Source of the DNA: Candidatus Dadabacteria bacterium
GTDB lineage: Bacteria > Desulfobacterota_D > UBA1144 > Nemesobacterales > Nemesobacteraceae
Direction of reading: 5' to 3'
Length of the DNA stretch: 64,000 nucleotides
NCBI GenBank assembly: GCA_009840385.1
Contig: VXNX01000013.1
Coordinates: 84,723-148,722, forward strand
Position numbers and translations under genes: made by a program
The notes under the pieces: model-generated
What the model was told of the DNA's origin: nothing
What the model saw: only the letters and a program-made list of their open reading frames with translations
Database searches by the model: none
Shown here: positions 1 through 43,097 of the stretch, one piece after another
How the letters are laid out: the number at the start of each line of letters is the position of its first letter
How positions within the stretch are numbered: position 1 is the first letter of the stretch

Positions 1-4
1 TAAG

Positions 5-403: not shown

Positions 404-413
404 CAAAGATAAA

Positions 414-1613: not shown

Positions 1614-1658
1614 CCGACGTTTTGCATAGGCAAAAGACGTTGAATTGAGATAAGCGAA

Positions 1659-3881
1659 ATGTTTTCAAAGCTTTGGAACCGAATTTCTACGCAAATTTCT
1701 ACGCAACTTTATATAAGTTACGCAGGTGCTGTAGTACTCATCATCATCGTCAGCTTGATGGCTCTTTCCTTCCTTAACCAAATCGGCAAAGTTCAGCAGA
1801 ACGTTAATGAAAAGAATATACCCGAGATGACATCGGCGTTTGCAATTGCCCAGCAGACAGCCATGCTCGTCGCCGCTGCTCCCCGACTCACCGCGAGCAC
1901 GCCTGAGCAGTTCAGGACCGTTGTCGGGACGGTCGACCTGCAGGCGGATGCATTTAAAACACAACTCTCGACAATGATGGAAAATCAAGGAGAAAGCGAA
2001 CAAGCGCGGCAGATTCAATCTGACGGGGTCGCCATAATCCAGAACATTGAGCGGATCAAGCTGCTTGTCAGGGAACGCTTTGAACTTCGCGAGAGCAGTC
2101 TCAATCTTAGAGACGAGCTCCGGGGTATCCAAAGTAAAATAACGCCGATTATGATTAACGAAATCGACGATCAGATGTTCTATTTAATGACCGGACACCG
2201 GTCTCTTGATGCAGTACAATCTCCCCGCTCGGTTCATTTCTCCGAACCGGAATTCCTGATCTATCGTCGCCTGTTTGAACTCCGCGAAGCGGCTGTAGTC
2301 GCTTCGCAGTTGCTCGCAACCGCGTTTGTAGTGACCGATGCGGCCATGCTGCAGCCATTGCGAGAACGGTTTGAAGCCGCAGCCGGTAGCACCAGCCGAT
2401 CGCTTGATGCGCTTGAGAAATACGAACAGGGGGGAGGCGACCTTCATGACCAGCTGTCTGGGATTTTCGAAGACCTGGTCTCATTCGGCAGAAGGGAAAA
2501 CAACGGATTTGACCTGCGCAGTCGGGAACTTGCAGTTGACGATGAATTATCCGCCCTGCTTCTCGAGAATCAAGCTTTGGGAATTGACATCGTAGCGCGA
2601 GTAGAAAGCGTTGTAAACGATTCAAGCATGACTGCAGGGGAGATGGCGAGCAAAGCGGCGGCGGTAACTGCCACCAGCACGAAGGTACTACTGGTTTTCA
2701 ATATTGTTGCTATAAGTGGTGGAATCTTGTGGGGATGGATACTTGTACATCGTCGTCTGATTCGGCGTCTGGAGAGAATATCGAATCAAATGCAAGAAAT
2801 GGCTGATGGCAACCTGGAAATAGCCGTCGACACTAGAGGTAATGACGAAATCGCGCAATTAGCCAAGGCGCTTGAGGTGTTCCGATATAACGCACTGGAA
2901 GTACAACGCCTTAATCTTGTAGAGACGCTCGCCAACCAGCTGCAAGAAAAAAACGAAGAACTGGCACATACTAACGAAGAGTTGAAACGGGCGCAGGACC
3001 AGATCGTGATGCGAGAGAAACTTGCTGCGCTTGGCCAGTTGACAGCCGGGGTCGCACACGAAATCAAAAATCCAATGAACTTCATCATGAACTTCTCGGA
3101 GGTTTCACAAGAGCTGCTGGAAGAACTTCTGGAGGAAGTGGCCAAAATGGAGGCTAACGGGGACGCGAAAGAGGAATACGATCCGGAGTTAGTCGAGGAA
3201 GTAGCCGAGGATTTGACAGGAAATTTGAAACGCATTCACGAGCACGGAACTCGTGCGAACCGAATTATAACAGACATGCTCAAGATGGGCCGTGGTGGCG
3301 GGGAATGGCAACCGACTGACCTCAACATATTGCTTAACGACCATGCGCTGCTCGCGTTCCACAGCGCTCGCGCTGCCGACCCTGACTTCCAGCTAGAAAT
3401 CCAGGAAGACTACTCGCCGGATATAGGCGAGATCACGGTGCAACCGCAGGACATCGGCCGGGTTTTCCTAAATCTGGTAACTAATGCTTGCTATGCCGCG
3501 GACGAAAAACGAAAAATGCTGGCAGCCGACAATGCGTCGAAGAAAGATTATCAGCCGACGCTTAAATTGAGTACGCGGCTCGTTGATGACCGTATTGAGG
3601 TACATGTTCGTGACAATGGAACCGGTATTCCCGAATCCGCATTGGAACGTATCTTCAACCCGTTCTATACAACGAAGCCCACGGATCAAGGGACAGGCTT
3701 GGGATTATCGCTGTCCAACGACATAGTACGACAGCACGGCGGTGAGTTTCGCGTAGAAACGGAGGAAGGAGAATACACAGATATGATTGTCGTCTTGCCG
3801 CTTGACCCTGTAGCTCATCAGGTAATTGATACTTCAGAAGAAACCGCAGAAGGCGAGGACTCGGCAACTGCCTCTTCGTGA
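1659..3881 (+). CDS. Membrane sensor histidine kinase (two TM segments, periplasmic/helical sensor, HAMP, HisKA, HATPase)
   Basis: H-box GVAHEIKNPMN, N-box FLNLVTNACYA, G1 VRDNGTGIP, G2 GTGLGLSLS. A HAMP-like segment follows the second TM. No receiver domain. Confidence 0.9.
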   Translation: MFSKLWNRISTQISTQLYISYAGAVVLIIIVSLMALSFLNQIGKVQQNVNEKNIPEMTSAFAIAQQTAMLVAAAPRLTASTPEQFRTVVGTVDLQADAFKTQLSTMMENQGESEQARQIQSDGVAIIQNIERIKLLVRERFELRESSLNLRDELRGIQSKITPIMINEIDDQMFYLMTGHRSLDAVQSPRSVHFSEPEFLIYRRLFELREAAVVASQLLATAFVVTDAAMLQPLRERFEAAAGSTSRSLDALEKYEQGGGDLHDQLSGIFEDLVSFGRRENNGFDLRSRELAVDDELSALLLENQALGIDIVARVESVVNDSSMTAGEMASKAAAVTATSTKVLLVFNIVAISGGILWGWILVHRRLIRRLERISNQMQEMADGNLEIAVDTRGNDEIAQLAKALEVFRYNALEVQRLNLVETLANQLQEKNEELAHTNEELKRAQDQIVMREKLAALGQLTAGVAHEIKNPMNFIMNFSEVSQELLEELLEEVAKMEANGDAKEEYDPELVEEVAEDLTGNLKRIHEHGTRANRIITDMLKMGRGGGEWQPTDLNILLNDHALLAFHSARAADPDFQLEIQEDYSPDIGEITVQPQDIGRVFLNLVTNACYAADEKRKMLAADNASKKDYQPTLKLSTRLVDDRIEVHVRDNGTGIPESALERIFNPFYTTKPTDQGTGLGLSLSNDIVRQHGGEFRVETEEGEYTDMIVVLPLDPVAHQVIDTSEETAEGEDSATASS

Positions 3882-3887
3882 CGCGTT

Positions 3888-4247
3888 TTAACCCGTTGTT
3901 GCAGCTATAGCGTCAGAACGAGATTTGAGCACATCAATGATTTTATCAAAACCTGCGATCTCGAAGATTTCCCTTATGGGACCAGGCAAGGAACACAGCA
4001 TGAATCTCGTATTTCTACTTTGCAATGTTTTTGCAATAAGCAGAATTGAACGCAATCCCGCACTGCTGATGTAGGACAGCTTTTCAAGATCCAGAACTAC
4101 GGGATTGTCAGAACCACCTATTTCCTTGTCCAGGTTCTCGTGGAATTCCTGTGCGTTCAGACCATCAATTCGACCAGCTACGGTTATTATCAAGACACCT
4201 TCGACCTGATCGGACTGCAATTCAAGTTGATTGTTTTGACTAGCCAT
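3888..4247 (-). CDS. STAS-domain anti-sigma-factor antagonist (SpoIIAA/RsbV-like)
   Basis: 119 aa. VLDLEKLSYISSAGLRSIL contains the conserved phosphorylatable Ser context, and the C-terminal part (FEIAGFDKIIDV) also fits this family. Confidence 0.85.
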   Translation of the reverse strand: MASQNNQLELQSDQVEGVLIITVAGRIDGLNAQEFHENLDKEIGGSDNPVVLDLEKLSYISSAGLRSILLIAKTLQSRNTRFMLCSLPGPIREIFEIAGFDKIIDVLKSRSDAIAATTG

Positions 4248-4422
4248 TTTTCAATCGTAGTAACTTATCTAACTATAAAGCGATAATCAAGATAGGATTT
4301 GCATGTCCAAACAAAAGAGACAATACCGGGATATTCCAAGGGATGCAACCCCGGGAATCCGGGGTTGCGCAGGTGCCGGGGACTTGTTACCCTTTATCAA
4401 GCTTGTTTGTCAAGCTACAATC

Positions 4423-4887
4423 ATGGGAAAAAATCTTGAGATAGGGAACCAGGCCCCTGATTTTGAAACCGAAACCTACGGAGCGGAGAAAGTAAGGCTA
4501 AGCGACTTTTATTCTAAAGGAACCGTAGCGCTTTACTTTTATCCTAAGGACAACACTACGGGCTGTATTAATGAGGCTTGCTCGCTTCGCAATGCGGAGG
4601 AGGAACTTGCGTCTCTTGGAGTACAGGTCTTGGGGGTAAGCACAGACGGGGTGAAGTCCCATGAGAAGTTCAGAGACAAGTTTTCACTCAATTTCCCGTT
4701 ATTGAGCGACAGGAGCAGGAAGATAGTGGCTCTTTACGGGGTAAGGTGGAAGTTCTTCCCCTTCGTTGCTCGCAGGACTACCTTCCTTATAGAAAAAGGC
4801 GGCAGGATAGCGTATATTTGGAACAAAGTTAAATCCTCGTCCCATGCCGAAGAGATACTCAGCAAGGTAAAAGAACTAGGTCTTTGA
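4423..4887 (+). CDS. bcp: Thiol peroxidase / peroxiredoxin Bcp (PrxQ)
   Basis: APDF near the N-terminus and YFYPKDNTTGCINEAC (the Cys-x4-Cys Bcp motif). I chose the internal ATG at 4423 over the ORF-track start at 4303 because homologues start near MGKNLEIGNQAPDF. Confidence 0.8.
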   Translation: MGKNLEIGNQAPDFETETYGAEKVRLSDFYSKGTVALYFYPKDNTTGCINEACSLRNAEEELASLGVQVLGVSTDGVKSHEKFRDKFSLNFPLLSDRSRKIVALYGVRWKFFPFVARRTTFLIEKGGRIAYIWNKVKSSSHAEEILSKVKELGL

Positions 4888-4937
4888 ACGGTGAACAAAG
4901 TATGAGGAAATGCCAGATCTGAAACCTACACATATTG

Positions 4938-4943
4938 TATAAT
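4938..4943 (+). promoter_or_regulatory. Candidate extended -10 element (TGTATAATTCGG) for the RND gene
   Basis: TATAAT at 4938-4943 preceded by TG. The ATG at 4957 is only 13 nt downstream and there is no Shine-Dalgarno sequence. Confidence 0.4.
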
Positions 4944-4956
4944 TCGGCACGATCTT

Positions 4957-7287
4957 ATGAACTTGGAATCCTACATCTCAACAATTCTCGCCCGCCGCTG
5001 GCTGACCATTCTGCTCTCTTTGCTTGTTATGCTGGTCCTTGCCGCGGGAGCCACGCGCTTGATTGTGGTGGACGTAGACTTCCGCAACCACTTTAGTAAA
5101 TCCGACCCACACCTCGTTGCACTCGAACAGCTTGAAGAGACATATGCACTGTCCGATGTCGTATTGGTTGCCATAGCACCGCATGACGGCACCATTTTTA
5201 CACGGGAAACGCTTGTTGCCATTGAAGAGATGACCAAGCAGCTTTGGCGCACCCCGTACGCCACCCGCGTCGATTCTATTTCAAACTATACGCATAGCGA
5301 GGGGTTTGAAGACGAGCTGGTTGTTGAGCAGCTTATAGACGAAGCCAGTTCCCTGAGCGATACCGATATACAACGAATCATGGATATCGCGCTCGGCACT
5401 GAGGAAGTTGCCGGGCGATTCGTCTCCCGTGACGGACGAGTTGCAGGTCTGGTTGTCAGTATTATTCTTCCTGACGACAATAGGGAATTGGCCAAGCGAG
5501 AGGTTACTGACTACCTGTATGAAACTGTTGCCGACGCCGGGGAGAAATATACATCCATCGACTACCACCTTTTAGGTGGACTCATCCTCAATCGTGTCAT
5601 AGGTGACGCGCTTGATGATGAAACGGCCATCCTCGGGCCCATTGCTCTTGGAACCATGCTGCTTGTCGCCTTGGTTCTGATACGTTCGATATGGGGGACA
5701 CTTGCCATTGTGCTGATGATTGCTACCGTCATCCCATCCGCGCTGGGCTTTGCCGGGTGGACAGGCTTAAGACTGTTTGGTGAAAGCGGTGCCGCAATGT
5801 TCGTGCTGATGGCCGTGACCGTCGCTCACTCCGTGCACATTATTGAGGCAATGGCCGGGGGCTTACGCCAGGGCATGACGAGAACAGAAGCGGCAATCTA
5901 TGCCGTGCGAGTGGACGTGTGGCCTATTTTCCTTACCTCGTTCACAACCGCAATCGGATTTCTGAGCCTGAATTTCGTAGATATGCCACCGTTTAAGGTC
6001 ATGGGTAACATCGTGGCGTTCGGTTCCATGTGCGCTTTCGTCTTTTCGGTGACTCTGTTGCCCGCATTCCTGTCACTATTACCTATTCGTCCCCGGAAGC
6101 TGCGCGAAGACAAACAGGATTTTTTCGATCGTCTCAGCCGTTTTGTCATCTCCTATCGTACGATCCTTCTGTGCTTCTTTGGCATTGTGACTGTCTTTCT
6201 GGTTGCAGGCATTTCCAAGATTGAGCTTAGGGAGAACTGGCTTGAGGTTCTTGACGAGAGTTACGAGTTCCGGCGATCCGCGGATTTTCTGAGCGAGAAT
6301 TTCCCTGGCGTGGAAACCTATGAGTACTCTCTCGATTCCGGCCGTGAAGGCGCCGTCACGGATATAGAATACCTAAAACAGGTTGAGTCGTTTGCGGATT
6401 GGTACCGGGAGCAACCGGAATTTGTCCATATCTTCTCAATTGCCGATATCATGAAGCGTCTTAACAAGAACCTGCATGGTGATGACCCGGATTACTACGC
6501 CCTTCCCGACGATCCTGACCTTGCTGCGCAGTACCTTTTGCTTTACGAATTCTCTCTTCCGGTAGGCCGCGATCTGAACAACCTGATCGACCATGACCGG
6601 AGGGCAACACGCGCAACGGTCTCAGTGAAGAGTATGTCCAGCAAGGAAAAGATCGATCTTGACGATCGTTCACGTGCGTGGCTGCGGCAAAATGCCCCCG
6701 GCATGGAAACCGGCGCTACAGGAATTTCGATTGTGGGGTCTCATTCGATTCAGAGGAACATTGAAAATATGTTGCAGGGCACTTTTGTGGCGATGGCCAT
6801 CGTCTCCCTGCTGCTGTTCGCCATATTCAGAAGCATACGCCTGGGACTGGTCAGTTTGATCCCCAATTTCCTTCCGGCCGCTATGGCCATGGGACTGTGG
6901 GGGTATTTGGTGGGAGAGGTAGGAGTTCCAGCGGCGGTCGTCACCGCTATAGCATTCGGCATCATCGTGGATGACACCATCCACTTCATGACAAAATATA
7001 CGGATAGCAGAAAAGCAGGGAAATTGCCTTCGGAGTCCGTTCAAATTGCCTTTCGCTTGGTGGGCAGGGCACTGTTTACAACTACCGTAGTGTTTGGTCT
7101 GGGCTTCATGGTGTTCGGAGCATCCGGGGTGGTGGGAAACCAAGTGCTTGGTCTTTTGGTAGGAATAACGGTAATTATTGCTCTACTGGCAGATTTCTTC
7201 TTTCTTCCGCCGCTTCTGATGCTACTTGACGAGACCAAGGAAACCACCGAGGAGATTAGGGAGAGATTGAGACGCTCAACCGCATAG
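4957..7287 (+). CDS. RND-superfamily exporter (MMPL/HpnN-like, COG1033-type, two 6-TM bundles)
   Basis: 776 aa. N-terminal TM, large periplasmic loop, 5-TM bundle, second loop, second bundle. This architecture and sequence style match HpnN/MMPL lipid exporters. Confidence 0.8.
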   Translation: MNLESYISTILARRWLTILLSLLVMLVLAAGATRLIVVDVDFRNHFSKSDPHLVALEQLEETYALSDVVLVAIAPHDGTIFTRETLVAIEEMTKQLWRTPYATRVDSISNYTHSEGFEDELVVEQLIDEASSLSDTDIQRIMDIALGTEEVAGRFVSRDGRVAGLVVSIILPDDNRELAKREVTDYLYETVADAGEKYTSIDYHLLGGLILNRVIGDALDDETAILGPIALGTMLLVALVLIRSIWGTLAIVLMIATVIPSALGFAGWTGLRLFGESGAAMFVLMAVTVAHSVHIIEAMAGGLRQGMTRTEAAIYAVRVDVWPIFLTSFTTAIGFLSLNFVDMPPFKVMGNIVAFGSMCAFVFSVTLLPAFLSLLPIRPRKLREDKQDFFDRLSRFVISYRTILLCFFGIVTVFLVAGISKIELRENWLEVLDESYEFRRSADFLSENFPGVETYEYSLDSGREGAVTDIEYLKQVESFADWYREQPEFVHIFSIADIMKRLNKNLHGDDPDYYALPDDPDLAAQYLLLYEFSLPVGRDLNNLIDHDRRATRATVSVKSMSSKEKIDLDDRSRAWLRQNAPGMETGATGISIVGSHSIQRNIENMLQGTFVAMAIVSLLLFAIFRSIRLGLVSLIPNFLPAAMAMGLWGYLVGEVGVPAAVVTAIAFGIIVDDTIHFMTKYTDSRKAGKLPSESVQIAFRLVGRALFTTTVVFGLGFMVFGASGVVGNQVLGLLVGITVIIALLADFFFLPPLLMLLDETKETTEEIRERLRRSTA

Positions 7288-7363
7288 ATCGCGAAGATTC
7301 CACTGTGCGGTATGGAAAAGCTGAATAGTATGCCGAAATCGGCATAAACGTCTCCACATACCT

Positions 7364-8407
7364 CTACGGATTATAATACTGACCATCCGGATAGAACTGC
7401 CTGCAGTAGCGCCGATACTTCCCGATATCGCCGTCAACGCTGCAAAGCCTTGGAAGTGACCGATGTTTTAGATTGCTCCAGATGACGACATCCTGCATGA
7501 CGTCATGCTCCTGGGAAGCAATGAGGACCTTGTTCATGAGGCGGGTCCTGAGTCCCAGGGGAAGGAGCCGCAGCCCGTGGCCCACTCCCTTCAGATTACG
7601 AAGTTGTCGCACTTGGCTCACCAACGTCAATTCAATAATTTTGCCATCAATCGGTGTTGCAAGCACCCACAGGCGGGTGTCCATATTGATCGAATGTTCG
7701 TGAACCTCGACAATTGAATAGCCAAGCCCGTGTATACTGGCGACCGCAGAAACGTCGTACTCGAAAAGCTTGATGCCAGCAACTGTAAGGTTACGTTTGA
7801 AGTTAAAGGAGTTCCTGAGGAAGGTGCCGTCAATCGATACCGAACCGACAATGTTCACACTGTTGTAGTGGTGCACATAGTTAAGGTGTGCAACATCCAC
7901 GGAGTTCTCGGTAGTTTCCTGGGGATGTCCCGGGAAACGGAGGTGGCAGAATTCCATCCCGCTCCAGTCGGTATCCGTTGTGGAGATTTCGGGCAGGTGC
8001 CATAGAGGTTCTCGACCGCCGCTGCCCCACCAACCAAAAATGAGACCCTCTATCTCTCGTGTCTCGAACACCTTCAGCTTGGCGGTTTTTGGCGGAGGAG
8101 CGAAGGGTGTCGCCACGCATTGACCGCTCACGTCAAACTCGAAACCGTGAAAAGGACATACGAGGCAACCGTTGCGCACCCGCCCCCCTGCCTCAGGGCC
8201 AAGATCGGCTCCAAGATGCGGACAGACCGCCTCAGCAACACAAACGTTCCCTTCCCCGTTGCACCAGACAACAATCTGTTCTCCAAGCCAAGTTCTCTTT
8301 AAGAGTCCCTTTTTTTCAATCGTCTTGCGGCTGGCAACAAAATACCAGCCTTCCGGAAATGGGTAAAGCAAGGCTTCATCCTTGCGCACGTTTGAGTTTG
8401 GATTCAT
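7364..8407 (-). CDS. Rieske [2Fe-2S] non-heme-iron oxygenase, alpha-subunit type (KshA/Neverland/SdmA-like)
   Basis: CPHLGADL...CPFHGFEF Rieske ligands, plus the mononuclear-Fe motif ENSVDVAHLNYVHH (E-x3-D-x2-H-x4-H). Confidence 0.85.
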   Translation of the reverse strand: MNPNSNVRKDEALLYPFPEGWYFVASRKTIEKKGLLKRTWLGEQIVVWCNGEGNVCVAEAVCPHLGADLGPEAGGRVRNGCLVCPFHGFEFDVSGQCVATPFAPPPKTAKLKVFETREIEGLIFGWWGSGGREPLWHLPEISTTDTDWSGMEFCHLRFPGHPQETTENSVDVAHLNYVHHYNSVNIVGSVSIDGTFLRNSFNFKRNLTVAGIKLFEYDVSAVASIHGLGYSIVEVHEHSINMDTRLWVLATPIDGKIIELTLVSQVRQLRNLKGVGHGLRLLPLGLRTRLMNKVLIASQEHDVMQDVVIWSNLKHRSLPRLCSVDGDIGKYRRYCRQFYPDGQYYNP

Positions 8408-8444
8408 TTGCTGTTATTCCGCTTATCCAGCGTTAAGTACCAGA

Positions 8445-8458
8445 AATGCATTTGCATT
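8445..8458. promoter_or_regulatory. Operator-like inverted repeat AATGCA-TT-TGCATT
   Basis: Perfect 6-bp arms with a 2-nt spacer. Lies between the -10-like motif (8466-8478) and the Rieske start codon (8407). Confidence 0.3.
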
Positions 8459-8465
8459 AGCTTCA

Positions 8466-8478
8466 GGGAATTATATAT
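8466..8478 (-). promoter_or_regulatory. Promoter-like motif (minus strand reads ATATATAATTCCC) upstream of the Rieske gene
   Basis: Canonical TATAAT followed by TCCC, ~60 nt upstream of the ATG at 8407. The same motif recurs at 13534, 32384, 41417 and 20281. Confidence 0.45.
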
Positions 8479-8763
8479 CTAAACCGAAAAAGTGTAAATT
8501 CTGCTTTTTCTCGTTTGTGGGGGGAATAATAATAAGCGTTTTGCTTGCCTTTTGTTTCTAGATCAATGCACAGCTAGCCTGTTCTCTTAACATAAACTCA
8601 TAACTTGTCCTTATGAAATATTTTGGTTGCAGACAAAATGGCATCCGTCTAGCCAAGTTGATCTTGAAATTGCATCTTTCATTAAATACTATACTAGTGC
8701 TGGTGGCGACCGGCTCGTTCCACAGGACTCTTTATGAGGCAGATGCCTTTGCTTCCGTGAACT

Positions 8764-8877
8764 ATGGAAAACCTTAGATACATAATCGCTTACCTGTTGG
8801 GCTTTGTGGCTATTGCTCTTGTGGCAATTCTGATAGTAGTCGGCGGTGTTACTCTAGTTCGCTGGATTTTTGGGTAA
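8764..8877 (+). CDS. Possible 37-aa single-TM small protein (MENLRYIIAYLLGFVAIALVAILIVVGGVTLVRWIFG)
   Basis: Found by reading the sequence; it is below the ORF-track cutoff. Strongly hydrophobic core. It ends 70 nt upstream of the SMT-like gene. No clear SD. Confidence 0.25.
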   Translation: MENLRYIIAYLLGFVAIALVAILIVVGGVTLVRWIFG

Positions 8878-8946
8878 TTAAAGGGTTAAGCCCATAACCA
8901 CTTATTGCGAAAAATAATTCCATAAATTTTATAGGGGAAACCTGCT

Positions 8947-9984
8947 ATGCAACTCCGCAAATTATTGAACGGACTGAAGACCGCGTACAGCGGGTCGAAC
9001 GTCGCCCGCCGCGTGCAATACTTCAATGGATGGACAGACAGGGCGTCCGCGGAGAATACCGGTGCGGCGGACTATGATCACACCAAGACCGTCAAGGAAT
9101 ACTACGACCTTTGCAGCGAGCTCATGGTGTTCGGCTGGGGCGAATCCCTTCACTTCGCACCGCTGTCGCCCCGCGAGAGCCTGGAGGACTCCAAGATTCG
9201 GCATCAGCGGCTGATGATTGCCAAGCTGGAGCTGCACGAGGGGATGACGGTGGTCGATATCGGTTGCGGGATCGGCGGCCCGATGCGCCGTGTCGTCCGC
9301 GAGGCCGGAGTCAGGGTCGTCGGGGTCAACAACAATGAAATCCAGTTGGACAAGGCAAAATCGTTGAACGTTGAGGCAGGGCTCGACCACATGGTCGACT
9401 ACATCGCGTGCAGCTTCATGGACATGAGCGCCATCGCGGATGACACCTTCGACCGGGGCTACGCGATCGAATCGACGTGCCACGCGCCAAAAAAGACGGA
9501 CGCGTTCGCCGAGATCTACCGCGTGCTGAAACCCGGAGCCCTCTTCTGGGGTCAGGAAATGTGCCTTACGGACAAGTTCGATCCCGACGACAACCGGCAC
9601 CAAGCCATCAAGCAGGAACTAATGCACGGCATCGCGCTCAAGGATATCGCGACGATGGGCGAGGTGGACCGGGCGCTTGAAACCGTGGGATTCCAGGTCG
9701 TCGAGGGGGCGGACCTAGCCGTCGAGGAGAACGGTCCGACCACGCCGTGGTACCAACCCATGGAAACCCGGCACGGAACGCTGGACAATTTCCTGCCTAG
9801 GCTTCCGCTGGGGCGTAAGGTGTTCATCGGGGCATCCAGGCTGGCCGAGATACTGGGGGTGTTCCCGAAAGGTTCCGCGGAAGTCTTCAGTCTGATGGAT
9901 CGGACCGCCGACGCCTATGTCGCGGGCGGCAGGACCGGGGTCTTCACGCCGCTATATTGCTTCCTGGCACGCAAACCCCTCTAA
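8947..9984 (+). CDS. Sterol C-24 methyltransferase-like SAM-dependent methyltransferase (Erg6/SMT family)
   Basis: Collinear with yeast Erg6 as I recall it: EYYDL..FGWGESLHF, SAM motif VVDIGCGIGGP, YAIESTCHAP (Erg6 YAIEATCHAP), IYRVLKPG, and the C-terminal sterol-MT domain ending FTPLYCFLARKP (Erg6 FTPMMLFVARKP). Confidence 0.85.
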   Translation: MQLRKLLNGLKTAYSGSNVARRVQYFNGWTDRASAENTGAADYDHTKTVKEYYDLCSELMVFGWGESLHFAPLSPRESLEDSKIRHQRLMIAKLELHEGMTVVDIGCGIGGPMRRVVREAGVRVVGVNNNEIQLDKAKSLNVEAGLDHMVDYIACSFMDMSAIADDTFDRGYAIESTCHAPKKTDAFAEIYRVLKPGALFWGQEMCLTDKFDPDDNRHQAIKQELMHGIALKDIATMGEVDRALETVGFQVVEGADLAVEENGPTTPWYQPMETRHGTLDNFLPRLPLGRKVFIGASRLAEILGVFPKGSAEVFSLMDRTADAYVAGGRTGVFTPLYCFLARKPL

Positions 9985-10119
9985 ATCCCCGCATTCCCTA
10001 GTGCTCCAGCGGATCCTCCCATGGCGCACTTCAGGCGGACAATTTGCACATCCGCTCGGCAATGCGGAATTTCAGCTTTTGGTTCGGTTTCATCGCAGGT
10101 AAGGGTATATCTTAGGGAA

Positions 10120-11568
10120 TCAATAAGCTGCGCGTCTTGCAATTTCTTTAAGCATCTGCCTGAAAATAATCCAGTGGATTGGATAAAGACCATACCAGTA
10201 AAGCAGACCGCCGAGACCCAAGGGCTGGAAAACGGCCGTCTGCGTTATCTGACTGCCCCTTTCAGCGGGCTCGACTTCAAACTGAAGCCACGCCTGACCA
10301 GGCAACCTCATTTCCGCTCTCAGGCTCAGCAGTCGATTCTCTTCATACGCCTCAACACGCCAGAAATCCAGAGGGTCGCCCTGGCGCAAGTCGGTCGGAT
10401 GCCGCCTGCCCCTCCGCATCCCTACTCCACCCACCAGCAGATCAACCAGGCCGCGCAGATACCATATCCAAGTGGCAAAATACCAGCCCTGCTCTCCGCC
10501 AATGCGTCGTATGGGCGCGAAGGCTCGGGCGGGGTTCACTTTGACGACGGCCTGCTGGCGGTCAACAAGTTGTGAGCCGAAACGTCTTCTGCCCCAAGAC
10601 GGCCGGTTACCGCTTGAAGACACGGCGTCGCTCCAGCGGGTCTGGGCAATTTCCATATTTTCCTGCTTAAGGGCACGGTCTATCGCTTGGCGCACTCCCA
10701 AGGGATGTACCGGGAAACGCTTCAGGGCCGTTTTATCGCGGACGATGGTCTCGTTGCGTAAACCGTCAACGAGTTTCCTTCCCACCCGGGCGTAAAGGGG
10801 AGTCACAAGACCCAGCCAGAGACTTGAGAGATTGGGACTCAGTACAGGCACCGGAATCATGAAGCGCCGCACGCCGATCTGGCGTGCGTACTCCTGCATC
10901 AACTCACCGTAGGTAACCTGGTCAGGACCGGCGATTTCAAAAACCGCGCTGTCTTGCAGTTCCAGATCCAAGCCACAAATGAGATAGGCTATTACGTCTT
11001 CGATGGCGATGGGCTGGGTTAATGTTCTCACCCAGCTCGGGGTAACCATCAGCGGCAGCCTGTCAACCAGGCTTCGCAGCAACTCAAAAGAAAGCGATCC
11101 CGAGCCGATTATGATCGAGGCGCGAAATTCCAAGGTCAGGGGACCTTCTGAGGCCAGAATATCCCCTACTTCCCTGCGGCTCGCTAAGTGAGAGGAAAGT
11201 TCACCATCTCCGAACAAGCCTCCCAGATAAATAATTCGACGCACCCCATGTCGGCGTGCAACCCGGGCAAAATTACGCGCCCCGATACGGTCCTGCTCCT
11301 CGAAGTTGTCCCCGGAACCCATGGAATGGACCATGTAGTAGGCCGTGTCCACCCCTTCAAGCGCGATCTCGAGAGAATCAGGGTCAAGCACATCGCCGGC
11401 GATAATCCGGGTATCGGGGGAGAAACGACCGGCGAGATATCCGGGATTGCGGGCAAGACAACGCACCGGCTCTCCCCTTCCCTCCAAAGCCGGGACCAGC
11501 CGCCCGCCAACATAACCGCTTGCCCCCGTTACCAGTATAATCCGGTCTTCTTTCTTATCATCGGACAT
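10120..11568 (-). CDS. Atypical SDR / NmrA-like NAD(P)-binding protein with C-terminal DUF2867-like domain
   Basis: ILVTGASGYVGGRL Rossmann motif at the N-terminus. The ~150-aa C-terminal region resembles DUF2867 fusions. GC-rich by eye. Confidence 0.7.
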   Translation of the reverse strand: MSDDKKEDRIILVTGASGYVGGRLVPALEGRGEPVRCLARNPGYLAGRFSPDTRIIAGDVLDPDSLEIALEGVDTAYYMVHSMGSGDNFEEQDRIGARNFARVARRHGVRRIIYLGGLFGDGELSSHLASRREVGDILASEGPLTLEFRASIIIGSGSLSFELLRSLVDRLPLMVTPSWVRTLTQPIAIEDVIAYLICGLDLELQDSAVFEIAGPDQVTYGELMQEYARQIGVRRFMIPVPVLSPNLSSLWLGLVTPLYARVGRKLVDGLRNETIVRDKTALKRFPVHPLGVRQAIDRALKQENMEIAQTRWSDAVSSSGNRPSWGRRRFGSQLVDRQQAVVKVNPARAFAPIRRIGGEQGWYFATWIWYLRGLVDLLVGGVGMRRGRRHPTDLRQGDPLDFWRVEAYEENRLLSLRAEMRLPGQAWLQFEVEPAERGSQITQTAVFQPLGLGGLLYWYGLYPIHWIIFRQMLKEIARRAAY

Positions 11569-11611
11569 TAACTTCTCGATGCAATTATTAACTGAGATTA
11601 ATTAACCTCTT

Positions 11612-12523
11612 TTAAAAAACATCGCTGAGCTTTTTTGCTGTCCTGAGCTTTTCAAATGTGGTGTAGCGTAGCCCCTGCATAGCTCCAAGCGGAGCGTCGC
11701 TGAAAGGTATCGGCCCAATCTCTTGTGCTTTCTCAGAGAAAACAATCCGATACTTACCACTCTCCCCATATGGTTCGATCCGGTCAACCGGCGCATAGTG
11801 TGTGATTGCGGAAACTGGATTTGTTTGATAAGCGGCGATGTATTTAATCTTTCCAAGCATCCCACCAGAGATACGTATTGCATGCCAAGAGTCTTCTCCG
11901 AGAAAGACCTTCTTAAACCCCTCTTCACGTGCGGGCACTATTACAGTATCGGGTTTGTGCGAAGGCAAATTGGGCAGTATATCTTCAGTAGTAGCTCTTG
12001 GCGTAGCAACTGGTTTCGGAAACTCGAACACTCGCAAGCCCACCAATGGGAGTATTTGGAGGATTTCCTTTAGAAATCTCTTTGTATCCGCTTTCTCAGA
12101 TTCAGTCATCACAGGTTCTTGCGGAACATTACCGTTGGCCAAATGGCAGCGGTTAGCTTGCGCTGCACGATCCAGTAGCGCATATTCCAGCCAAGTAATA
12201 TGAGCCCGGTTGAGACCATCATTGGCTGAAACAAACACGATCCCATGATCCCAGAAATCCTTATCCTTATAGTGAGACTCAATACGTTTATGGACACCAT
12301 CCGCCTGACCAACATAAATAGTTGGCAACTCATCATCCTCATTCTCATAACCCTTTAACATATAAACACCGGCTCGAGTGAACTCAGGACGCTGCTTGAT
12401 TTCTGCCCATTTGGAACGTGGAAAGGCCAAACCGACCCCTGTCCAATTCATATGGTCAATCACCATAAGGCTTTCTGGGTCGCCATCGGGGACATATATG
12501 TGGATTGTAAACGCTTCAGCCAT
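11612..12523 (-). CDS. GIY-YIG nuclease family protein with C-terminal DUF4357-like domain
   Basis: AGVYMLKGY ... TIYVGQADGVHKRIESH (GIY / YVG / Arg-His block), then a ~110-aa C-terminal domain. Lower GC than its neighbours by eye. Confidence 0.7.
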   Translation of the reverse strand: MAEAFTIHIYVPDGDPESLMVIDHMNWTGVGLAFPRSKWAEIKQRPEFTRAGVYMLKGYENEDDELPTIYVGQADGVHKRIESHYKDKDFWDHGIVFVSANDGLNRAHITWLEYALLDRAAQANRCHLANGNVPQEPVMTESEKADTKRFLKEILQILPLVGLRVFEFPKPVATPRATTEDILPNLPSHKPDTVIVPAREEGFKKVFLGEDSWHAIRISGGMLGKIKYIAAYQTNPVSAITHYAPVDRIEPYGESGKYRIVFSEKAQEIGPIPFSDAPLGAMQGLRYTTFEKLRTAKKLSDVF

Positions 12524-12831
12524 TAATTGCTCTGGTTTTTAATACTCCCACACTGAGAACTTAATATTGATGATTTCATTAGACCTAGAACTGGAGCATA
12601 CTCCAAACAAATTCTATGTAATGAGAAAATATATGTAAGAACATGTTTAATTGTCAATCATGTATGCACAACTATAAGAACGTGTTCTGAGTTTGCTAAA
12701 ATTCAGGTTTTGACATTTCTTCAAATTTCTTCTTATGGTTCAGGAAAATCACATCCAATCCCCTACCTTGATGGAAATTGCTAAAAAAATGTTTTTGCCC
12801 AAAAAGGAAAAGAGTCCTCAGTATACGGAAA

Positions 12832-13500
12832 CTAGGAAAGCAGTTTCTGAATTCTCTTTATCCTCTCTTCTTCCGTTTCCTCTTCCTTCAAGCTTGGGGG
12901 AATCCCGTTTCCTCTTATCACGGCGGGCCTTTCGCCAACTTCGGCATGCCACCTAGTAAGATTCGGAAAAGCCCTGAGATCCAGTTCCGCCCAGTCGTAA
13001 GCGTTTATCCAGGGCCATGTGGCTATGTCGGCGATCGAATACTCTTCTGCAAGATACTCCACTTCAGAGAGTCTTCCGTCGAGTATCGAGTAGAGCCTTT
13101 TAGTCTCCTCGGTGTATCTCTTTATGGCATAGGGTATTTTTTCCGGGGCGTACTTTAAAAAGACGTTCAGCTGTCCCTGCATGGGCCCTACCGCCGACAT
13201 CTGGAACATGAGCCACTGGATGCACGTTGTTCTGCGACTGTCCCCTAGGGGCGGAAGAAAGTTTCCGAACTTGTCGGCAAGATATATGAGTATGGCTCCT
13301 GACTCAAAAACCGCCGTGCCGTCATCATTGTCAACTATTGCGGGTATTTTCCCGTTCGGGTTTATCTCGAGAAACCACGGCTCCTTGTGTTCAAGCTCAG
13401 AGAGGTTAAGAGCGTGAATCTTGTAGGCGGCTCCCAGTTCTTCAAGCATTATTGAAACCTTCTTGCCGTTCGGCGTGGCCGCCGTGTAGAGATCGATCAT
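12832..13500 (-). CDS. Glutathione S-transferase (Nu-class, YfcG/YghU-like)
   Basis: [36 protein letters not shown]-terminal thioredoxin-like domain plus a helical C-terminal domain. Confidence 0.85.
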
Positions 13501-13533
13501 TTTTTGCCTCGGTTTATATCGGGCCCTCAGTTA

Positions 13534-13546
13534 GGGAATTATATAC
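13534..13546 (-). promoter_or_regulatory. Promoter-like motif (minus strand GTATATAATTCCC) upstream of the GST gene
   Basis: TATAAT-TCCC lies ~35 nt upstream of the ATG at 13500. A GAGG SD lies between them. Confidence 0.45.
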
Positions 13547-13630
13547 AATAGTTACGAAAAATCCGGTCAATTTAACTTGTTTCCTGCATCGGCCGTATAT
13601 GTTAAATTTTCTTTTGGAAGGAGTCAGACG

Positions 13631-13702
13631 ATGACCGCAACAGGTCACGCTCCCGAAATGAAACGTAGATTGAGTACGGCTGGACGAAGGATGCCCAGAT
13701 GA
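13631..13702 (+). CDS. Possible 23-aa upstream ORF (MTATGHAPEMKRRLSTAGRRMPR) coupled to the hydroxylase gene
   Basis: Strong SD (GGAAGGAG) 7 nt upstream of the ATG at 13631. Its TGA (13700-13702) overlaps the ATG (13699) of the next gene as ATGA. Confidence 0.25.
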   Translation: MTATGHAPEMKRRLSTAGRRMPR

Positions 13703-14334
13703 CCTATATAATAAGCGCAATCCTGGTGATGAGCGGATTTATGGCCGGAGCCCAGCTGGCCTACTCTAAGCTCTATGACTGGAGAATAGCCGAGGGAGAC
13801 GGCAGTCGTCTCAAGGACCGTTACAGAAATGCTTCAATGAACGGAACGATCGCCGTGGCGCTTTACCTTGTCGCGATCGTGATGTTCGGGGAACTCCTGA
13901 TAGACTTGGATGCAGCTTCCACCTGGTACAAGCCCATCCTTGTCCTGCTGCTTTACGATTTCGGGTACTACTGGCTGCATCGTCTGCTGCATGTGCGGAA
14001 AGTCATGCAGAAAGTGCACTGGGTTCATCACATGAACCTGCATCCCACTGCCGTCGACTCCCTGTATCTGCACCCGGTGGAAATGATCGCGGGGCTGGCT
14101 TTCCTGTTAATCTCGATAGTGATAGTGGGCCCCTTGGGTATCGGAGCGTTTCTGGCGGTCGTTTTGCTTCATACCATCATCAACATACTGCATCATACGA
14201 ATCTGCAGCTACCCTATCGTCTGGCATGGCTCGCGAACCACTGGGCCTCAAGTCACGATGCGCATCATAGCCAGGGAGGAAATTACGGAGTGATTACGCC
14301 TGTATGGGACTGGATATTCGGAACGCGCTCATAA
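13699..14334 (+). CDS. Fatty-acid hydroxylase superfamily membrane di-iron enzyme (sterol desaturase / C-4 methyl oxidase, Erg3/Erg25-like)
   Basis: Three His boxes (HRLLH, HWVHH, HDAHH) and 4 predicted TM segments in 211 aa. Confidence 0.8.
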   Translation: MTYIISAILVMSGFMAGAQLAYSKLYDWRIAEGDGSRLKDRYRNASMNGTIAVALYLVAIVMFGELLIDLDAASTWYKPILVLLLYDFGYYWLHRLLHVRKVMQKVHWVHHMNLHPTAVDSLYLHPVEMIAGLAFLLISIVIVGPLGIGAFLAVVLLHTIINILHHTNLQLPYRLAWLANHWASSHDAHHSQGGNYGVITPVWDWIFGTRS

Positions 14335-15410
14335 AAGGTCCCGTACTGGTAACCGGCGGATGTGGATTCATCGGAGGGGCGATTGTCCACGCATTGGCCG
14401 ACGAGGGGCGGGATGTGCGGGTAGTCAGTCCGCATTGCCATTCGTTTCGGTCCGACGTGCGATTTCTGAACGTGGATATCAGAGACCTGTCTGCCCTCGT
14501 CCGGGCTTGCCAAGGATGCGAGACGGTTATTCATTGCGCGTCCGTCGTACAGACCCGCAACACGGCACGGGATGAAATGTGGTCCGTGAACTACGGCGGG
14601 ACGGTCAACGTGATAGAAGCATGCAGGAGGGCTGGGGTACGCAAACTCGTGCATATCAGTTCGGCCAGCGTGGTTTTCGAGGGCAGGGATATCGAGGCCG
14701 GAGACGAGACCCTTCCCTATGCGGAAGTATCTATGAGCGCCTACGTGGACAGCAAGATAGAGGCGGAACGGCGTGTCCTGGAATTCGCTACAGAGGATGT
14801 AACCCGGGCATGCGCGCTGCGTCCTCACCTTGTCTTCGGTCCGGGAGACCAACGTTTCCTCCCGAACATTCTCAAACGGGCAGACGGGGCAGGTATCCGG
14901 GAAGTTGGTCGGAGGGAGAAGCTGTCCGATTTCGTCTATGTCGACAATGTGGTCGATGCCGTGCTGGCCGCGGAACGGGCCCTTGACTCGAACGGGCTGG
15001 TATCCGGTCAGGCATATTTCGTGACAAACGCGGAGCCGGTCCCGTTTTTCGAGTTCATAGAACGCCTGCTTATGGCGTCAGGGTACGGTCCCATCCGACG
15101 ACGTATTCCCTACTGGGTGGCGTACGCGGGAGCGGGCATTGTGGAGGGCTTCCATGCCGTGATACGACGGGGTTTGGTCCCGGAGGACGGCCTGTCCCGG
15201 TTCGCGGTCCGCTACTTGAATACGCATCACTACTTCCGTATTGACAAGGCGTGCCGCGACCTGCATTGGCAACCCCGCGTATCCCTTGCCGAGGGGATAG
15301 CACGCACGGCCGATTCGTTGCACGATTCGGCGTACGACAGGGCGTTACGTGTTCAACAAGAACCCTCTATCGCAAAGGAACCAGACGATAAAGGTGATGT
15401 CCCGCGATAA
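14304..15410 (+). CDS. 3-beta-hydroxysteroid dehydrogenase/isomerase-family NAD(P) enzyme (Erg26/NSDHL-like)
   Basis: VLVTGGCGFIGGAIV Rossmann motif, catalytic YVDSK (YxxxK), and extended-SDR architecture. Overlaps the preceding gene by 31 nt, so the two are probably co-transcribed. Confidence 0.8.
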   Translation: MGLDIRNALIKGPVLVTGGCGFIGGAIVHALADEGRDVRVVSPHCHSFRSDVRFLNVDIRDLSALVRACQGCETVIHCASVVQTRNTARDEMWSVNYGGTVNVIEACRRAGVRKLVHISSASVVFEGRDIEAGDETLPYAEVSMSAYVDSKIEAERRVLEFATEDVTRACALRPHLVFGPGDQRFLPNILKRADGAGIREVGRREKLSDFVYVDNVVDAVLAAERALDSNGLVSGQAYFVTNAEPVPFFEFIERLLMASGYGPIRRRIPYWVAYAGAGIVEGFHAVIRRGLVPEDGLSRFAVRYLNTHHYFRIDKACRDLHWQPRVSLAEGIARTADSLHDSAYDRALRVQQEPSIAKEPDDKGDVPR

Positions 15411-18128: not shown

Positions 18129-18947
18129 CTATTTGCGCCCTGTCGCTTCCCCCCAGGCAAAAGCCGCCAGCGCTCCAGAGGTGTCCTTCCACTCATCAAG
18201 CTTCCGGCGCCAGTCATCGAACTGTTCCTGGGTAGCAATACCGTATTTCGTGGCCGCTTCAACTGTATCAGGGGAGAAAAACCAAGCGCTAATGAAACCG
18301 TGAAGAAAATCAATGTCTTCGTCCGTGCAGAAAGGTTCGAACGAAACACTCGCACTTATGTCCGAGAAACCGGCCTCAACAAACAGCCGCTTGAGTTCCC
18401 TGCCGATCTGGGGGTGGCCCCCGTTAGCTTCGATAAGCTTCGCAAACGTTTCCCATCCGTCCCTCAACGAAGGCTCCAAAAACGAGGAATCAACAAACAT
18501 CTCCCGGCTTGAGATGATGCCGCCGGGCTTCAGGACTCTACGCACCTCCGCCAGAACAGCCAAGGTTTGCGGGGCGTGCATGAGAACGGCGTGACAGTGT
18601 GCGACATCAAACGAGTCATCCTCAAAGGGCAGATCTGCCACGTCAGCGGTCTGGAACACAGCGTTTCGGTGTCCGCCGGCATCCGCGGCGGCCCGTGCGA
18701 TCTCAATCTGCGAAGCCTCCATATCGACACCGAAAAACTCTCCGGGTTCAACCGCTTTTGCCAGTCCCACAGAAATCGTTCCGGGGCCGCAGCCGAAATC
18801 AAGAACGCGCATGCCCGGCTCAAGGTGCGGAAGCAGGTGTGCGGCGCTGGTCCCCGCATTGCGGCGCCTGAGCAGTTTCTGAAAATCGTCGCTGTATCCC
18901 ATGGTGTAGGCAGAAGTGGAAGCATCTTGGGTCTTGTTGCTGTTCAT
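18129..18947 (-). CDS. Class I SAM-dependent methyltransferase (substrate unknown)
   Basis: VLDFGCGPGT motif I and FDVAHCHAVLMH; Methyltransf_11/25-like. Confidence 0.8.
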   Translation of the reverse strand: MNSNKTQDASTSAYTMGYSDDFQKLLRRRNAGTSAAHLLPHLEPGMRVLDFGCGPGTISVGLAKAVEPGEFFGVDMEASQIEIARAAADAGGHRNAVFQTADVADLPFEDDSFDVAHCHAVLMHAPQTLAVLAEVRRVLKPGGIISSREMFVDSSFLEPSLRDGWETFAKLIEANGGHPQIGRELKRLFVEAGFSDISASVSFEPFCTDEDIDFLHGFISAWFFSPDTVEAATKYGIATQEQFDDWRRKLDEWKDTSGALAAFAWGEATGRK

Positions 18948-23083: not shown

Positions 23084-23175
23084 GCGATTTCCTCGCTCCA
23101 CCCCTCGGAGATGTCCGCACGGTTTTTTGTGCGGAGTGGTCAGCAACATCGTCTTTTTAACTTCAGGAACTACGA

Positions 23176-28897: not shown

Positions 28898-28906
28898 GGG
28901 AAAAAA

Positions 28907-29458: not shown

Positions 29459-29460
29459 TA

Positions 29461-43096: not shown

Positions 43097-43097
43097 C

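Follow-up and report, generated by a model that had tools for sequence, protein, structure and literature searches.

Sterol biosynthesis offers no better example of independent invention than C-4 demethylation in bacteria, and three variants of the SdmA/B/C system that carries it out have been shown experimentally. These SdmA/SdmB(/SdmC) systems, known from Methylococcus capsulatus, Enhygromyxa salina and Calothrix, employ a Rieske-type oxygenase, while the eukaryotic pair ERG25/MSMO1 and ERG26/NSDHL couples a membrane di-iron enzyme of the fatty-acid (FA) hydroxylase superfamily, with three His boxes, to an extended short-chain dehydrogenase/reductase (SDR) of the 3Beta_HSD family. Can a bacterium use the eukaryote-type chemistry, or even both? 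Here, we deal with a stretch of 64,000 nucleotides, called the window below, from a Candidatus Dadabacteria bacterium (GenBank assembly GCA_009840385.1, contig VXNX01000013.1, positions 84,723 to 148,722), in which a Rieske oxygenase gene lies 5.3 kb from a gene pair for a di-iron hydroxylase and a 3β-hydroxysteroid dehydrogenase (HSD). A first-pass annotation, made from the DNA letters alone, had seen in this arrangement two candidate C-4 demethylation chemistries in the same locus. As argued below, only one candidate for such a chemistry is left in the window: the hydroxylase/HSD pair, which forms a mobile cassette, is the candidate, and the Rieske protein is of another type than SdmA.

Hoshino and Gaucher (2021) concluded from in silico analysis that homologues of SdmA&B as well as of ERG25-27 are encoded in myxobacteria and in Dadabacteria (PMC8237579), so that the headline of the first-pass annotation had, as bioinformatics, been anticipated. 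With the thresholds of Lee et al. (2023), E. salina yielded no homologues of ERG25-27; these authors showed demethylation based on SdmA/B/C instead. A bacterial ERG25/ERG26-type route rests on in silico claims that were not reproduced for E. salina. Other described systems close to the present locus are the steroid and sterol methyltransferase (SMT) clusters of sponge symbionts, for which ERG24-CYP51-LSS, DFR/SdmB, SdmA and SMT have been described (Kelly et al., 2022, PMC9531527; Brown et al., 2023, PMC10070321). The clusters resemble our locus in habitat, in horizontal spread over multiple phyla and in having SMTs, and the Rieske type of the window is found in such a cluster in one genome (L036, see below). 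Looking up the relevant terms in passages of both reports gave no mention of the module of a KshA-like Rieske protein, MMPL transporter, GPP34-P450 and FAD oxidase, or of the hydroxylase/HSD cassette, that are described here.

The Rieske oxygenase is KshA-like

Proteins of the window were scanned against Pfam and NCBIfam, and 10 kb on each side was examined in addition (84 kb in total). Homologous neighbourhoods from other genomes, used for synteny comparison, carry labels of the form L036. The genes for the hydroxylase, the HSD and the Rieske protein lie where the first-pass annotation had placed them, with domain E-values between 1e-18 and 1e-57; their domains are genuine and not chance motifs. 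What the proteins do is deduced throughout from their sequences, and the names of enzymes used here are to be taken in that sense. Judging from sample tags and from the names of related metagenome-assembled genomes (MAGs), the bacterium, a Dadabacterium that carries the NCBI label Thermodesulfobacteriota, probably lives with a sponge (Ircinia). Loci with identical gene order and Rieske genes 93-95% identical to that of the window come from MAGs of Candidatus Dadabacteria/Thermodesulfobacteriota, with chromosomes of 1.5-2.0 Mb.

The Rieske protein indeed has the intact [2Fe-2S] and mononuclear-iron motifs ascribed to it in the first-pass annotation (CPH at residues 62-64, CPFH at 84-87, and D171-x2-H174-x4-H179). 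It is to be noted that metal ligands of this kind are generic to Rieske oxygenases. When the protein is placed against SdmA and KshA, it falls away from the former and lies nearer to the latter. On the SdmA model NF052579, whose cutoff is 600 bits, it gives 30.2 bits over residues 21-102, that is, over the Rieske domain only. The true SdmA encoded at L036:3480-4607, which served as positive control, scores 414.7 bits over model positions 5-346 of 351, and the window protein is only 20% identical to it (47 bits). On the other hand, the best match of the window protein in the PDB is KshA (4qdc), with 80.7 bits over residues 17-342 and about 25% identity, and the catalytic domain is of the KshA_C type. 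The SdmA homologues from sponge metagenomes reported by Brown et al. are 44-47% identical to the M. capsulatus protein MCA1016 (PMC10070321), which makes them a different protein type from the Rieske protein of the window. Nor is a true SdmA or SdmB encoded anywhere in the window; the neighbours of the Rieske gene are an MMPL gene and an SMT gene, both of which the first-pass annotation had passed over, with no SdmB-type reductase adjacent.

The cluster of L036, a Nitrospirales MAG, is the most telling comparison. It contains a squalene-epoxidase-domain protein (Pfam SE, 82.5 bits), a cytochrome P450 of 491 aa, an ERG4/ERG24 reductase (239 bits), the true SdmA, a true SdmB (303 bits on the SdmB model) and two SMTs and, 5 kb further on, a copy of the window-type Rieske gene whose product is 69% identical to ours. 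Since sterol genes and this Rieske type stand in a single cluster there, the type appears to be linked to sterols. Because the window protein fails the SdmA model and its type co-occurs with SdmA and SdmB in L036, the notion of two C-4 chemistries does not hold. By its sequence the protein is not SdmA, and what survives is the fallback of the first-pass annotation, according to which one of the two oxygenases does something else. The Rieske enzyme would desaturate a sterol, or hydroxylate its ring or side chain; a C-7 desaturation of the Neverland type may serve as an example. With KshA and with the C-7 desaturases Neverland, DAF-36 and DES7 it shares the Rieske plus KshA_C architecture and, presumably, a steroid substrate. 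It differs from KshA in the low identity given above and in its context, which looks biosynthetic or tailoring (SMT, reductase, transporter): neither a KshB reductase nor steroid-catabolic genes were seen among the scanned open reading frames (ORFs) of the window or its 10-kb extensions. With the SdmA/SdmB systems it has in common that a Rieske-type oxygenase is found in a bacterial sterol neighbourhood, beside an MMPL gene as sdmAB is beside bstABC, and it is unlike them in that its match to SdmA is confined to the generic Rieske domain.

In some genomes a second, divergent Rieske paralogue is found beside the module (L011, at about 13.5-14.5 kb; L070:8013-9068). It is about 25% identical to the window type and gives 57 bits on the SdmA model, in the Rieske domain only.

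A shared Rieske-MMPL module

How widely is this Rieske type distributed, and in which company? Among species-representative genomes, at least 579 relatives were detected, and neighbourhoods were taken from the best 80. These 80 (59-95% identity) are all from MAGs, many with sponge-derived names, and belong to about ten phyla, with Dadabacteria, Nitrospirales, Alpha- and Gammaproteobacteria, Acidobacteriota, Nitrospinota and Rhodothermales among the taxa. The constant partner is the MMPL gene. It adjoins the Rieske gene in 39 of the 80 loci, namely in every one of the 17 of Dadabacteria type and in 22 from other phyla, with identities of 47-72%. The hopanoid transporter HpnN is a member of the same Pfam family; a PDB sequence search with the MMPL protein of the window gave no match, so that no resemblance to HpnN can be claimed from sequence. 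A sterol transporter encoded beside sdmAB in Methylococcus, BstA, is also an MMPL-family protein (PMC10942540).

Around this core, several genes recur. SMTs are present in 26 loci. The SMT of the window carries the motif FGWGESLHF and is 72-81% identical to SMTs beside the same Rieske gene in other phyla. An alignment with an unverified yeast ERG6 sequence spans the full length with 34% identity (E 2e-71), which puts the protein, as judged against this reference, within the definition of SMTs given by Brown et al. (at least 30% identity and E no higher than 1e-50 to yeast ERG6; PMC10070321). A fusion of a GPP34 (GOLPH3-like) domain with a cytochrome P450, of about 675 aa, is present in 42 of the 63 non-Dadabacteria loci (L070:4617-6650, for example), and this strain has it at L176:3589-5607, about 4-6 kb upstream of the window start. 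The fusion protein is conserved at 62-64% identity across phyla, and its P450 domain finds CYP51 structures as best PDB matches, albeit marginally (76 bits). In 15 loci there is an FAD amine-oxidase-like protein of about 460 aa (L176:5756-7138, and in L036, L032, L074 and L089), with LkcE as best PDB match (88 bits). This protein is 83-85% identical across Dadabacteria, Nitrospirales, Alphaproteobacteria and Rhodothermales, far above its neighbours. TPR, LolA-like and outer-membrane β-barrel proteins also recur near the Rieske gene. A reductase of the ERG4/ERG24 family, 379-404 aa long, occupies a variable slot beside the MMPL gene in L012, L013, L019 and L023 (at about 13.8-15.0 kb); that of this strain, L176:2093-3232, is encoded before the window start, next to a second SMT, and might be a Δ24(28)-, Δ14- or Δ7-reductase. 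Taken together, the Rieske-MMPL core and its accessory genes can be read as a module that is spread horizontally among symbionts of sponges and corals and by which sterols would be tailored and moved.

The hydroxylase/HSD cassette

The hydroxylase and HSD genes share 31 nt (14304-14334), and the ATG at 14304 is the sole canonical in-frame start of the HSD 5′ of the Rossmann motif. The same overlap of 31 nt is found in L017 and L092, and one of 4 nt in the diverged copies L001 and L175; an overlapping stop and start is thus retained across three phyla, down to identities of 40% for the hydroxylase and 55% for the HSD. The first-pass annotation had supposed from the overlap that the pair is co-translated, and the conservation of a translationally coupled pair agrees with it. 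In front of the hydroxylase gene is an additional short ORF (Table 1), whose TGA stop overlaps the ATG of the hydroxylase (ATGA). It is kept in frame in L017, L018 and L092 and is not present in the copies of Candidatus Poriferisodalis, in which a tRNA-Ala gene precedes the cassette. This upstream ORF of 23 codons could encode a leader peptide or serve as a translational-coupling element.

The HSD is ERG26/NSDHL-like by sequence. It carries the motifs GGCGFIGG (from residue 18) and YVDSK (residue 147), and its best PDB match is human NSDHL (6jkg) with 135 bits, the runner-up having 66 bits. The assignment made at first pass therefore stands, and the protein is no sugar-nucleotide epimerase. 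It is 38% identical to human NSDHL, 33% over its full length to yeast ERG26 (again an unverified sequence) and 29% to SdmB (74 bits); on the SdmB model it gives 76 bits against the cutoff of 600. What do such identities mean? As yardsticks, ERG26, in the same unverified sequence, is 43% identical to NSDHL, and the ERG26 domain of P0440 is 28% identical to it. P0440, encoded on a Logan contig of 2.5 kb that is AT-rich and probably from a protist, is a natural fusion of 633 aa between an ERG25-type methylsterol oxidase and an ERG26-type 3β-HSD. The similarity of the window HSD to NSDHL/ERG26 is within the spread among eukaryotic orthologues, as far as these sequences can tell.

The top NCBIfam matches of the HSD are OleD models (NF042422 and NF042423; 233 and 228 bits against a cutoff of 580). 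This match is generic, because human NSDHL itself scores comparably, with 172 bits where the window HSD gives 149-163, and the remaining models rank alike for both proteins; the scores on the OleD model do not separate the OleD branch from the NSDHL branch. An identity with OleD was rejected for the low score relative to the cutoff and the shared score profile with NSDHL, and no oleABC genes were seen near the HSD gene.

The hydroxylase has its His boxes at residues 94 (HRLLH), 107 (HWVHH) and 186 (HDAHH), with an extra HH at 165, and in 18 homologues these histidines never or hardly vary. For comparison, exact database entries of human CH25H, MSMO1 and SC5D and of yeast ERG25 were used, with a CrtZ from a plasmid sequence of Pantoea ananatis (100% over 155 aa). 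A profile of the hydroxylase family gives 75/74 bits for MSMO1, 66-68 for ERG25 and 39-62 for SC5D/ERG3, and does not match CH25H or CrtZ; a relationship to either of the latter was accordingly rejected. Thus the nearest characterised relatives are, on profile scores, MSMO1/ERG25 and then ERG3, and the protein is the orthologue of neither. The label Erg25-like, given at first pass, is correct so far as it names the nearest characterised relatives, and goes too far if an ERG25 orthologue is meant, because the protein belongs to a bacterial short-form clade. Placing it among Erg3, Erg25 and CrtZ-like proteins, as had been suggested, sets it apart from CrtZ and in this separate clade. A PDB sequence search found no match even at E up to 10. 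The AF2 model is all-helical (pLDDT 92), and a Foldseek search of the PDB with it gave no structural neighbour, the best E being 1.7. On NCBIfam, OlsE is best with 23 bits. The title "sterol desaturase family protein" borne by the relatives is uninformative; PGAP names bona fide CrtZ likewise. Relatives of about 40% identity are found between the SMT and the GPP34-P450 in L029, and directly before the GPP34-P450 in L174.

Compared with the eukaryotic pair, the window genes show the same coupling of a three-His-box membrane di-iron hydroxylase to a 3Beta_HSD-family extended SDR, and their translational coupling parallels the natural fusion of P0440. They differ in the short hydroxylase of a bacterial-only clade, in a residue of the HSD discussed below, and in being a mobile bacterial cassette with its own upstream ORF and a predicted activity.

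The hydroxylase has few close homologues, only 20 clusters in a search of 5.8 billion proteins, and the nearest belong to Candidatus Poriferisodalis, sponge symbionts of the Acidimicrobiia, on which a literature search found nothing. In L001 and L007 from this group the pair is present with identities of 57-58% for the hydroxylase and 73-74% for the HSD, and the cassette begins 20-120 nt after a tRNA-Ala(CGC) gene (L001:9909-9982; L007:9804-9877), which is consistent with insertion of the cassette at a tRNA site. The cassette recurs on a JGI contig, L092, where blastn aligns it over 1768 bp (window 13616-15382) at 88.6% nucleotide identity, between unrelated housekeeping genes and with a permease of only 40% amino acid identity. 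L017 and L018 have it at 96-97% amino acid identity, and these are the only ones among the 17 syntenic Dadabacteria-type loci with the pair at this site; in the other 15 it could lie elsewhere in the genome. A diverged pair is found in a Gammaproteobacteria MAG (L175; 40% for the hydroxylase, 55% for the HSD), 8 kb from an MMPL gene with a sterol-sensing domain. The cassette is therefore mobile, with three unrelated genomic contexts and a diverged version in a Gammaproteobacterium, and is confined, as far as seen, to sponge symbionts. The pairing of hydroxylase and HSD is old and conserved; its linkage to the Rieske gene is not. For this reason, the words "same locus" of the first-pass annotation cannot be kept: 15 of 17 loci lack the cassette at the syntenic position, and in two other lineages it sits amid housekeeping genes.

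What does the cassette do?

The explanation that we tentatively favour, without regarding it as established or even as quite probable, is a sterol island that has a Rieske-MMPL core and a mobile cassette for ERG25/ERG26-like C-4 demethylation. According to it, the di-iron hydroxylase would oxidise the methyl group next to the 3β-hydroxyl, at C-4 of a 4-methyl or 4,4-dimethyl sterol, stepwise to a carboxylate; the coupled NSDHL-type dehydrogenase would oxidise the 3β-OH, and the resulting β-keto acid would lose CO2. A separate ketoreductase, perhaps the SDR fused to DUF2867 (10120-11568), may restore the 3β-OH, and the Rieske enzyme would carry out a different oxidation on sterols moved by the MMPL system. 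The logic of the cassette would be that of ERG25/ERG26, built with a non-orthologous bacterial oxidase. As part of the same tentative explanation, the region would be one end of an island for sterol tailoring and trafficking of about 25 kb, made up of window 1-15410 and some 9.6 kb before the window start. The latter part is seen on a contig that matches window 1-11613 at 99.99% identity and reaches 9.6 kb further upstream; this extension encodes the second SMT, the ERG4/ERG24-family reductase, the GPP34-P450, the FAD oxidase and a TPR protein. Strict conservation of the pair, the natural fusion in P0440, and the presence of SMT, ERG4/24 and GPP34-P450 genes within 10 kb upstream speak for it. 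So do the nearness of the HSD to NSDHL/ERG26 and of the hydroxylase to MSMO1/ERG25, the hydroxylase relatives beside GPP34-P450 genes in L029 and L174, and the MMPL gene with a sterol-sensing domain 8 kb from the pair of L175.

Several observations weigh against it. Oxidosqualene cyclase (OSC), squalene monooxygenase and CYP51 were not found in the window or in 10 kb on either side, so that no source of a 4-methyl sterol substrate is apparent. A homologue of ERG27 was not identified, although no search with an ERG27 reference was made. The hydroxylase has 211 aa against about 300 for ERG25; its profile gives 110-230 bits with uncharacterised bacterial proteins of some 224 aa, compared with 75 for MSMO1; and a neighbour-joining tree (200 bootstraps, with weakly supported deep nodes) places it in a separate clade of these proteins outside the ERG25 clade, in which ERG25 and CH25H are joined with a support of 0.94 before ERG3 is added at 0.6. 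Some members of this clade are fused to an exosortase, to DUF4139 or to an FA desaturase, or stand in non-sterol contexts. The Asp at the end of β2 in NSDHL (NVFD), which specifies NAD+, aligns with Ser in the window HSD (RVVS), so that the enzyme may prefer NADP(H) and act as a reductase; the residue is Asp in L175 and Asn in Candidatus Poriferisodalis. In that group the pair is found amid molybdopterin and housekeeping genes, and there is no sterol gene within 10 kb in two of the three contexts of the close cassette. The neighbours in L175, an FA desaturase, CMAS-type methyltransferases and a FAD_binding_4 protein, fit modification of fatty acids equally well.

Can these facts be better explained in another way? 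That the substrate of the cassette is a lipid other than a sterol (for instance the acyl chain of a fatty acid, a β-hydroxy or β-keto acid, or a lipid of the ornithine or sphingoid kind), and that the sterol genes around it are incidental, is in our judgement unlikely, though it deserves attention. The housekeeping surroundings of the cassette in Candidatus Poriferisodalis and L092 and the empty syntenic site in 15 of 17 loci would be expected from it, as would the top NCBIfam matches, which are OleD at 233 bits (HSD) and OlsE at 23 bits (hydroxylase), the neighbours of the pair in L175, and the fusions of clade members to an FA desaturase or exosortase. However, the OleD match is generic and far below its cutoff, with no oleABC nearby, the similarity of the HSD to NSDHL/ERG26 is at the level of orthologues, and relatives of the hydroxylase are embedded in clusters of SMT, P450 and MMPL genes. 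It is likewise unlikely that the cassette is directed to sterols without being a demethylase: a 3β-HSD, an HSD/isomerase or a 3-ketoreductase, with a sterol desaturase or hydroxylase of the C-5, C-22, C-25 or C-24 dealkylation type. Such a pair might, for instance, provide the KshA-like Rieske enzyme with 3-keto steroids, or alter sterols of the host. The profile scores of ERG3/SC5D (up to 62 bits) come near those of the ERG25 type (up to 75), sterol desaturases for C-5 and C-22 and a C-24 de-ethylase belong to the FA-hydroxylase superfamily (PMC9485055), enzymes of the KshA type act on 3-ketosteroids (PMC4064121), and the Ser at the NAD-specifying position would suit a reductase. Yet the HSD is nearest to the decarboxylating NSDHL/ERG26 branch, the strict coupling of oxidase and HSD mirrors that of ERG25 and ERG26 including the fusion in P0440, and no genes for steroid ring cleavage or side-chain catabolism were seen in scans of the window.

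Two parallel C-4 demethylation systems, the ERG25 plus ERG26 module and an SdmA-type Rieske enzyme with an SDR, are very improbable. A Rieske protein with intact metal sites and two SDR-type genes within 8 kb would be compatible with this view, as is the statement of Hoshino and Gaucher on Dadabacteria (PMC8237579), but the test of SdmA membership largely refutes it: 30 bits in the Rieske domain only, against a cutoff of 600 and the 415 bits over the full length of a true symbiont SdmA. The two Rieske types, only 20% identical, coexist in L036, no true SdmA or SdmB is in the window, and the DUF2867-SDR reaches 41 bits on the SdmB model, in its N-terminus only, against the 600-bit cutoff. Returning to C-4 demethylation by the cassette, it should be asked where a small-genome organism would obtain its substrate. 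Tetrahymena remodels scavenged sterols with enzymes of the FA-hydroxylase family and Rieske enzymes (PMC9485055), and by analogy such a sterol scavenger would fit an organism for which no OSC is seen in 84 kb.

Other genes of the window

The features discussed are collected in Table 1 with those between them. The DUF2867-SDR is found in 11 of the 17 Dadabacteria-type loci, and its best PDB match is a generic NAD-dependent epimerase (60 bits); it might be a ketoreductase. The next gene encodes a protein of 303 aa that matches nothing in Pfam or NCBIfam; of the related loci only L013 and L015 have it, and it looks like a strain-variable insertion inside the island. The GST gene is found in 16 of the 17 related loci.

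Table 1. Coordinates of the cassette, the Rieske-MMPL core and adjacent genes in the window; functions are predicted
Feature	Position	Strand	Remarks
MMPL/RND-family inner-membrane transporter	4957..7287	+	Pfam MMPL 122 bits; constant Rieske partner
KshA-like Rieske non-haem iron oxygenase	7364..8407	-	347 aa; Pfam Rieske 65 bits, KshA_C 89.8 bits
Sterol C-24 methyltransferase (ERG6/SMT family)	8947..9984	+	Sterol_MT_C 55 bits (cutoff 21.7), Methyltransf_11, CMAS
NmrA-like atypical SDR fused to DUF2867, variable island member	10120..11568	-	NAD_binding_10/NmrA and DUF2867, 117 bits
303-aa protein, no assigned family	11612..12523	-	GC 0.469 (low)
Glutathione S-transferase (GST), glutathione-dependent disulfide oxidoreductase type	12832..13500	-	GST_N/GST_C; PRK11752/PRK13972 ~190 bits
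FA-hydroxylase/HSD cassette with upstream ORF	13616..15382	+	1.77 kb, horizontally shared
Upstream ORF, 23 codons (MTATGHAPEMKRRLSTAGRRMPR)	13631..13702	+	Strong Shine-Dalgarno sequence GGAAGGAG
Short-form membrane di-iron hydroxylase, FA-hydroxylase superfamily, proposed methyl oxidase	13699..14334	+	211 aa; Pfam FA_hydroxylase 93 bits
ERG26/NSDHL-like 3β-hydroxysteroid dehydrogenase, proposed 3-dehydrogenase/C-4 decarboxylase	14304..15410	+	368 aa; Pfam 3Beta_HSD 194 bits

Beyond the cassette, a DUF1295 protein (21112-22008), of a superfamily related to steroid/sterol reductases, is encoded near class I methyltransferases (18129-18947 and 22265-23149); its copy in L017, 97% identical, sits between AcpH and an outer-membrane protein beside the cassette. 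In the Gammaproteobacteria MAG, the gene set at L175:11341-16489 beside the diverged pair (CMAS-type methyltransferases, a FAD_binding_4 oxidoreductase and an FA desaturase fusion) is reminiscent of genes by which mid-chain methyl-branched fatty acids are made. A CofH/MqnC-like radical SAM protein with UbiD, UbiX and UbiA at 26037-30303 suggests menaquinone biosynthesis of the futalosine type. An unusually long isocitrate lyase of 757 aa (39081-41354) is accompanied by a malate synthase of 627 aa (37153-39036), and a type I restriction-modification S/M pair is found at 41606-45080.

Concluding remarks

Here, we have compared a sterol-related locus of a probable sponge symbiont with the described routes of C-4 demethylation. 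Three points appear to be new: that the Rieske protein encoded beside the SMT belongs to a distinct and widely shared KshA-like family, that a mobile cassette joins a dehydrogenase of ERG26 grade with a bacterial oxidase that is no orthologue of ERG25, and that this cassette carries a conserved upstream ORF. A Rieske gene beside sterol genes hence cannot be presumed to be SdmA. It is conceivable, though we consider it rather doubtful as a whole, that symbionts of about ten phyla exchange two apparently undescribed sterol toolkits. One of them, consisting of the KshA-like Rieske enzyme, the MMPL exporter, the GPP34-P450, the FAD oxidase, SMTs and the ERG4/24-type reductase, would remodel sterols made by host or symbiont, for instance to Δ5,7 or side-chain-alkylated sterols. 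The other would be the mini-operon, in which a bacterial di-iron oxidase might have been recruited to an ERG26-type decarboxylase as a third, independently assembled route of C-4 demethylation. With its 1.77 kb, the cassette is a compact and expressible test case for a bacterial ERG25/ERG26-type route. Who makes or remodels the sterols of sponges? The shared module of Rieske, MMPL, SMT and P450 genes bears on this question, and hence on the 24-alkyl sterane biomarkers. If the two toolkits are real, the unusual sterol profiles of sponges, and sterane biomarker signals with them, would be owed in part to symbionts that have small genomes and perhaps no oxidosqualene cyclase.

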